A DNA stretch of 64,000 nt from Eimeria praecox (Eukaryota): positions 3,100,001 to 3,164,000 of the forward strand of contig OY986946.1 in the NCBI GenBank assembly GCA_963920595.1, written 5' to 3'. The first letter of the stretch is position 1. Each line of letters begins with the position of its first letter. The position numbers were made by a program, and so were the translations under genes. A model generated the notes under the pieces. It ran no database searches. It saw nothing but the letters and a program-made list of their open reading frames with translations, and was not told where the DNA came from. Below, piece by piece: positions 54,137 to 54,385 of the stretch.

Positions 54137-54187
54137 TGTGATGAAATTCAATCAAGCGCGGGTTAACGGCGGACGTAACTATGACGT
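51821..54187 (+). rRNA. 28S (LSU) rRNA gene, 5' part up to the insertion
   Basis: ACCCGCTGAATTTAAGCATAT, GACCCGTCTTGAAACACGGACCAAGG, and ...GGCGGACGTAACTATGAC(GT) at the junction. Confidence 0.97.
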
Positions 54188-54385
54188 GGAAATTTTTAAG
54201 GAAAACTGGGTTTTGGAGGGGCAAGCTGCTTCCCCAGAAAATTATGTGTTAGGTATTCACTGAGGGAGCCCATACTCCTGCGGCACGCCCTTCTTTGTGA
54301 GAGCCAACCGCTTTCACGCGTCTTAGAAAGTGCACATTATACGACCATGTAGGGTGTCCATCTACTATATCATCAACATATCAAA

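Follow-up and report, generated by a model that had tools for sequence, protein, structure and literature searches.

A non-LTR retrotransposon lies antisense in the 28S rRNA gene of Eimeria praecox, at a helix 69 with two swapped base pairs

The window, a 64,000-nucleotide stretch of an Eimeria praecox contig (OY986946.1), contains one rDNA unit with 18S, 5.8S, and 28S rRNA genes, the last extending over 51822-60075 around an interrupting element, and the Rfam search returned no second unit within the 64 kb (Table 1). Both E. praecox diagnostic primers match the ITS1 with 0 mismatches (primer table of PMC11067301), and the 12 primers of six further Eimeria species from chickens show 5-11 mismatches each there. 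The primer product measures 390 bases in the window and 368 bases as published in the same table. Downstream of the 28S gene, spacer-like repeats (60148-61350) hold five copies of ATGACGT, an echo of the target motif described below, and four of the five have TTAAG or TTAAT about 17 nt downstream; one diverged element contig of another data set (run X7, see below) is joined to such a repeat. Elsewhere in the window, eight tRNA-Ser genes (25244-38108) stand in tandem units of about 1,826 bases, seven with AGA and then one with TGA; each of seven of these units carries a 207-codon stop-free frame, and two more tRNA-Ser TGA copies are found at 39422 and 43393. An intronless 722-codon frame for a DEAD-box helicase with a GUCT domain (11541-13709, minus strand) and a 920-base microsatellite of the ATATCT type with about 17% GC (17044-17967) complete the picture.

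Table 1. Coordinates of the rDNA unit, the variant helix, and the inserted element in the window
Feature	Positions	Strand	Basis
18S rRNA gene	48987..50782	+	Rfam RF01960, 1741 bits
ITS1 stretch between both published E. praecox diagnostic primers	50807..51196	+	primer match
5.8S rRNA gene of the rDNA unit	51221..51374	+	Rfam RF00002
28S rRNA gene, 5' part, stopping within the 3' arm of helix 69	51822..54187	+	Rfam RF02543
A>T before helix 69, unpaired position of the Rfam model (GGGTTAAC)	54164..54164	+	Rfam alignment
Variant helix 69, GGACGT-AACTATG-ACGT; final two stem bases (TC) absent from the inserted copy	54171..54187	+	Rfam alignment, empty-site contig
Non-LTR retrotransposon (RT + RLE), antisense to rRNA, 4,784 bases	54188..58971	-	frames, domains, junctions
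3' part of element ORF: remaining RT (YADD), CCHC finger, PD..D..K RLE	54386..56350	-	
5' part of element ORF: zinc-finger-like motif at the N terminus, first half of RT	56250..58772	-	
Filler at the element's 5' junction, 11 nt, non-target	58961..58971	.	unique within window
28S rRNA gene, 3' part, beginning TTAAGGTAGCC	58972..60075	+	Rfam

The sequence that interrupts the 28S gene encodes a reverse transcriptase (RT) and, behind it, a CCHC finger and a restriction-like endonuclease (RLE) of the PD..D..K type; it has no LTR, and this is the organization of RLE-bearing non-LTR retrotransposons. Its left junction corresponds to the element's 3' end, where a 3' UTR of about 198 nt follows the stop codon. 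The frame changes near 56319 in the window copy, and contigs from runs X2 and X7, as well as part of those from X1, differ from the window there by an indel; five related proteins, described below, are single ORFs of 1380-1536 aa, so that a single long ORF is the form of this family and the frameshift is a feature of the window copy. Also present in the runs are copies with internal deletions and several diverged element subfamilies, with an identity of about 85-90%. No related element locus was found in the genome contigs and viral contigs searched.

Positions 54160-54200 read GGGTTAACGGC-GGACGT-AACTATG-ACGT|GGAAATTTTTAAG. According to the alignment with the Rfam eukaryotic LSU consensus, the helix differs at 54173 (G>A), 54174 (A>C), 54186 (T>G), and 54187 (C>T), and Rfam marks these positions as compensated pairs with changes in both arms, one G-C to A-U and one A-U to C-G. 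A first, sequence-only reading of this DNA had proposed just such a swap of two pairs with pairing kept, and had also pointed out a change immediately upstream of the helix; both observations hold, the latter falling on the Rfam-unpaired position 54164. The resulting GGTTAAC state recurs in two of the metagenome contigs described below (L004 and L006) and is also present in a planarian 28S line of S6 Fig of PMC4640811. Compared with the canonical eukaryotic helix 69 (RF02543), the variant is alike in its 7-nt loop, its 6-pair stem, and its outer pairs, and differs in the two inner pairs. When folded, the complete variant 19-mer, as carried by L001-L006, gives a 6-bp stem and a 7-nt loop, and with this stem and its conserved loop it has the form of a functional-type LSU helix 69. 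We attribute the changes on both stem arms to selection on rRNA structure. The window contains the variant-helix 20-mer a single time, and a match at ≤3 mismatches appeared in 0 of 100 shuffles. The window 28S departs further from the consensus at 59010 (C>T) and at 53875 (G>T), the latter breaking a pair.

The run search comprised 24 runs, 20 of them with part of the stretch, and four (X1, X2, X7, and X23) were aligned to 54140-58995. X1, which covers more of the stretch than the other runs, may come from the same sample as the window; it is fragmented, at about 35 letters per record, and its contig depth does not equal copy number. One X1 contig (depth 399, with 21 letters on its shorter side) joins 54187 to 58972 via TC and represents an empty allele. 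The intervening TC implies that the empty helix reads GGACGT-AACTATG-ACGTTC and that two nucleotides were lost, a loss established for the window copy of the element only; it likewise places the GT at 54186-54187 in the rRNA and the junction at 54187/54188. These assignments agree with those made from the sequence alone, which had left room for a deletion of four nucleotides should the GT belong to the element; the empty-site contig rules this out, with TC alone being lost. The right flank restarts at 58972 with an intact TTAAGGTAGCC. As anticipated, the insertion shows no target-site duplication, the overlap between left and right being 1 base only, and no poly(A), the sense 3' end of the element reading ...CCTTAAAAATTTCC. 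At the other end, contigs of X1, X2, and X7 diverge from the window after 58960 into the same 30 letters, which are absent from the window. Judged from these sequences, the window copy is probably 5'-truncated and its 11 nt of filler non-templated.

In X2, a contig with a depth of 2940 (of 2991) has an indel that lies 6 nt into the element, and since the aligner calls such an indel only if the contig is anchored on the flank, this suggests that the bulk of the copies sit on the 54187 flank. One diverged, low-depth X7 element contig has a different flank. Among the matches listed for X2, X7, and X23, there was no empty joint, a result that neither supports nor contradicts the empty allele, as records resembling conserved rRNA were filtered. 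The same filtering applies to X7, a putative RNA run, in which helix 69 has no row among the matches listed. X23 consists of raw Hi-C reads under another organism label; none of its listed matches falls on helix 69, and its reads match mainly the RT region of the element, at <90% identity and at high depth. Contig depth was considered as a gauge of the inserted fraction and rejected as unreliable.

A 22-base motif spanning the variant helix was found in six contigs of a metagenome collection (L001-L006). All of them are LSU genes without insertion in which the motif runs on into TC-TTAAGG, and the best model is eukaryotic for five and archaeal for one. Pairwise identities separate them into five mutually divergent rRNA lineages, with two contigs 99% identical to each other, and their longer matches to the window 28S show 66-92% identity by piece. 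The contig with the archaeal model as its best (L004) nevertheless carries the eukaryote-type TATG loop and the variant helix. At 59010, downstream of the insertion site, the C>T change is shared by L001-L003, i.e., three of the four metagenome contigs covering this position; its presence alongside the variant helix hints at a tertiary covariation in these sequences. The motif search of GTDB genome contigs had no match, the literature searched did not yield the variant helix, and the accessible passages of PMC11828913, PMC11912684, PMC12642447, PMC2048585, and PMC13580325 contain no coccidian helix 69 sequence. Together, the empty-site contig and the six uninserted LSU contigs bear out the earlier suggestion that host rDNA can have an unusual helix 69, and they answer the question of whether GGACGT is confined to inserted units, which it is not (one X1 contig and 6/6 metagenome LSU contigs). 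On this sequence evidence, we regard the variant helix 69 as a rare, recurrent rRNA state that is host-encoded.

The protein search with the element gave 163 matches, 120 of which were listed. Among the matches listed, five relatives (P0003-P0007) are 60-79% identical to the window protein (P0001), and the next proteins, mostly from oomycetes, are 35-36% identical. The nearest named relatives are oomycete RT proteins at 33-36% identity, in many cases equipped with an RNase H domain (PF13456). No RNase H match was obtained for P0001, and none is listed for P0003-P0007. For the tree, 118 of 121 sequences passed the coverage filter and were subsampled to 81. In this midpoint-rooted tree, built without named Repbase references and without an R2 or HERO outgroup, the window protein falls with its five relatives into a clade supported at 1.0; this clade together with P0009 is sister to an oomycete Utopia-like group, the whole having a support of 0.95. 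Oomycete RLE elements bearing RNase H are described in passages of Kojima and Jurka (2015; PMC4640811) as U2-specific Utopia elements of the NeSL clade, and Table 1 of that paper includes no apicomplexan host. The best reading of these sequences is that the window element belongs to a lineage related to Utopia whose target has changed, which points to a U2-to-28S target switch within the Utopia lineage. No report of a 28S-inserting element in Eimeria was found in the literature searched, subscription journals and Repbase being outside its coverage. MGEScan assigned 17 non-LTR elements of Eimeria genomes to R2 (Rodriguez and Makalowski 2022; PMC9141347), with neither a target site nor a clade placement named in the accessible passages; these R2-classed elements probably include the family of the window element.

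As for the status of the variant helix, we lean toward a general lineage trait of this Eimeria. Because the ITS1 is of the diagnostic E. praecox type, an ordinary rDNA unit is favored, and the intact pairing of helix 69 was counted on the same side; the empty site itself comes from one contig in one of the four runs compared. Appreciably less probable, though to be taken seriously, is that the variant helix marks a minor second rDNA class: canonical GGGAGT units would then feed most ribosomes, and the element would be confined to the variant class, possibly via the swapped pairs, just as planarian R5 is said to be restricted to a 28S family that is seldom transcribed. Divergent rDNA paralogs, which reportedly exist in E. 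meleagrimitis, were counted for such a class, as was the fact that the rDNA unit is not tandem within the window. The extra departures at 59010 and 53875, with the pair broken at the latter, would fit a paralog or a decaying orphan, and the empty-site contig of X1 has a depth of 399, the deepest element contigs listed being at about 800-4800, although depth is an unreliable measure here. Two 18S types have also been reported for E. mitis (passages of PMC7564333). Nonetheless, a minor class fits poorly with the exact match of routine diagnostic primers to the ITS1, and no canonical joint was present among the matches listed, a weak argument since conserved rRNA records were filtered. A bolder version of the minor-class reading strikes us as doubtful: Eimeria would possess a second rDNA class recognizable by the double compensation in its helix 69, and an element descended from Utopia that moved from U2 to 28S would recognize exactly the swapped pairs, with the minor class serving as its safe haven. 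If true, apicomplexans would have their own counterpart of planarian R5, and the target choice of a transposon would, in this natural example, be set by an rRNA covariation.

The sequence-only reading had further raised the idea that the element writes its own variant copy of the target; the element might also carry such a copy, for instance as a 28S-like 3' end that replaces the flank. Some R2 families, such as R2Hm-B and fish R2, do have 28S-derived ends (passages of PMC5035012), but the variant helix is joined to TC-TTAAGG without the element in X1 and occurs in unrelated, uninserted LSU genes, and both stem arms are changed, reflecting selection on rRNA structure. This counterevidence is strong, even with one contig at the empty site, and we consider an element-written target very improbable. 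We give equally little credence to a sequencing error, which that reading had also named, to an assembly error, or to random decay in a dead orphan unit. While the unit is solitary and interrupted, the element copy carries a frameshift absent from other copies, and a pair is broken at 53875, the four changes in helix 69 add up to exact compensation in two pairs, six other LSU contigs have an identical helix, and the empty allele, in one contig, argues strongly against an error.

Taken as a whole, the evidence makes it reasonably likely that the GGACGT/ACGT(TC) helix 69 is host 28S sequence and that a NeSL/Utopia-type element inserted there by target-primed reverse transcription, with two target bases lost. 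The RLE would nick the rRNA-sense strand after ...TATGACGT, which we take to be 8 nt upstream of the R2 site, and the 3'-OH at this nick would prime cDNA synthesis starting at the 3' end of the element. A second cut about 2 nt downstream on the opposite strand, or trimming, would remove TC, and the element's 5' end would be joined imprecisely, with 11 filler bases. In this scheme, the polarity, junctions, empty allele, and domains are observed, and the nick, priming, and second cut are modeled on RLE-element biology as presented in passages of PMC13580325 and PMC5035012. The compensatory changes in helix 69 would be older than the insertion and most likely fixed in the functional rRNA of this Eimeria lineage. 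Recognition by the element probably reads the helix 69 region. A small deletion without a target-site duplication is routine for the RLE class; passages of PMC5035012 describe for R2 a fixed first nick and a variable second cut, with small deletions as the result. Precise 3' junctions, variable 5' junctions, and a lack of target-site duplications in some families are likewise described in passages on Utopia (PMC4640811) and R2 (PMC5035012).

The novelty lies in a Utopia-related element that has an apicomplexan host and occupies, in antisense, a variant helix 69. For a retrotransposon that inserts into rDNA, both target site and polarity are thereby fixed in an apicomplexan, a phylum that, to our knowledge, has been considered poor in such elements. 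The locus also lends itself to a clean test of whether an endonuclease with a specific site can tell apart two rDNA sequences with the same helix fold, and for studies of R2-type insertion the element is relevant as a compact RLE element whose target in the rDNA hotspot is new.

R2 resembles the window element in being an RLE element of the same 28S hotspot. Its site, which we take to be AAGG/TAGC in 28S with insertion in sense, is left untouched here, as the window element is antisense with TTAAGGTAGCC intact on its right. The two further differ in the strand nicked first, in a site shifted by 8 nt, and in their clade. The insertion site of R5 is presumably about 8 bp upstream of that of R2 and would then equal the position of the window insertion, and R5, LIN9, LIN24, and LIN26 of planarians are alike in being NeSL-type elements in 28S. 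By the tree, built without named Repbase references, the closest named relatives of the window element are oomycete proteins. LIN24 and LIN26 (NeSL clade) lie antisense in 28S about 70 nt upstream of helix 69 according to S6 Fig of PMC4640811, and they differ from the window element in this site and in their poly(T) ends. The 3' flanks of LIN26 also start with ACGTC, a likeness judged too short for use. With Utopia, as characterized in passages of the same paper, the window element shares a single ORF with a zinc finger, RT, CCHC, and RLE, a precise 3' end, and a variable 5' end. In contrast, Utopia resides in U2 snRNA genes and its oomycete members carry RNase H upstream of RT, whereas the window element, whose protein has no RNase H match, is flanked on both sides by 28S and sits antisense in helix 69.
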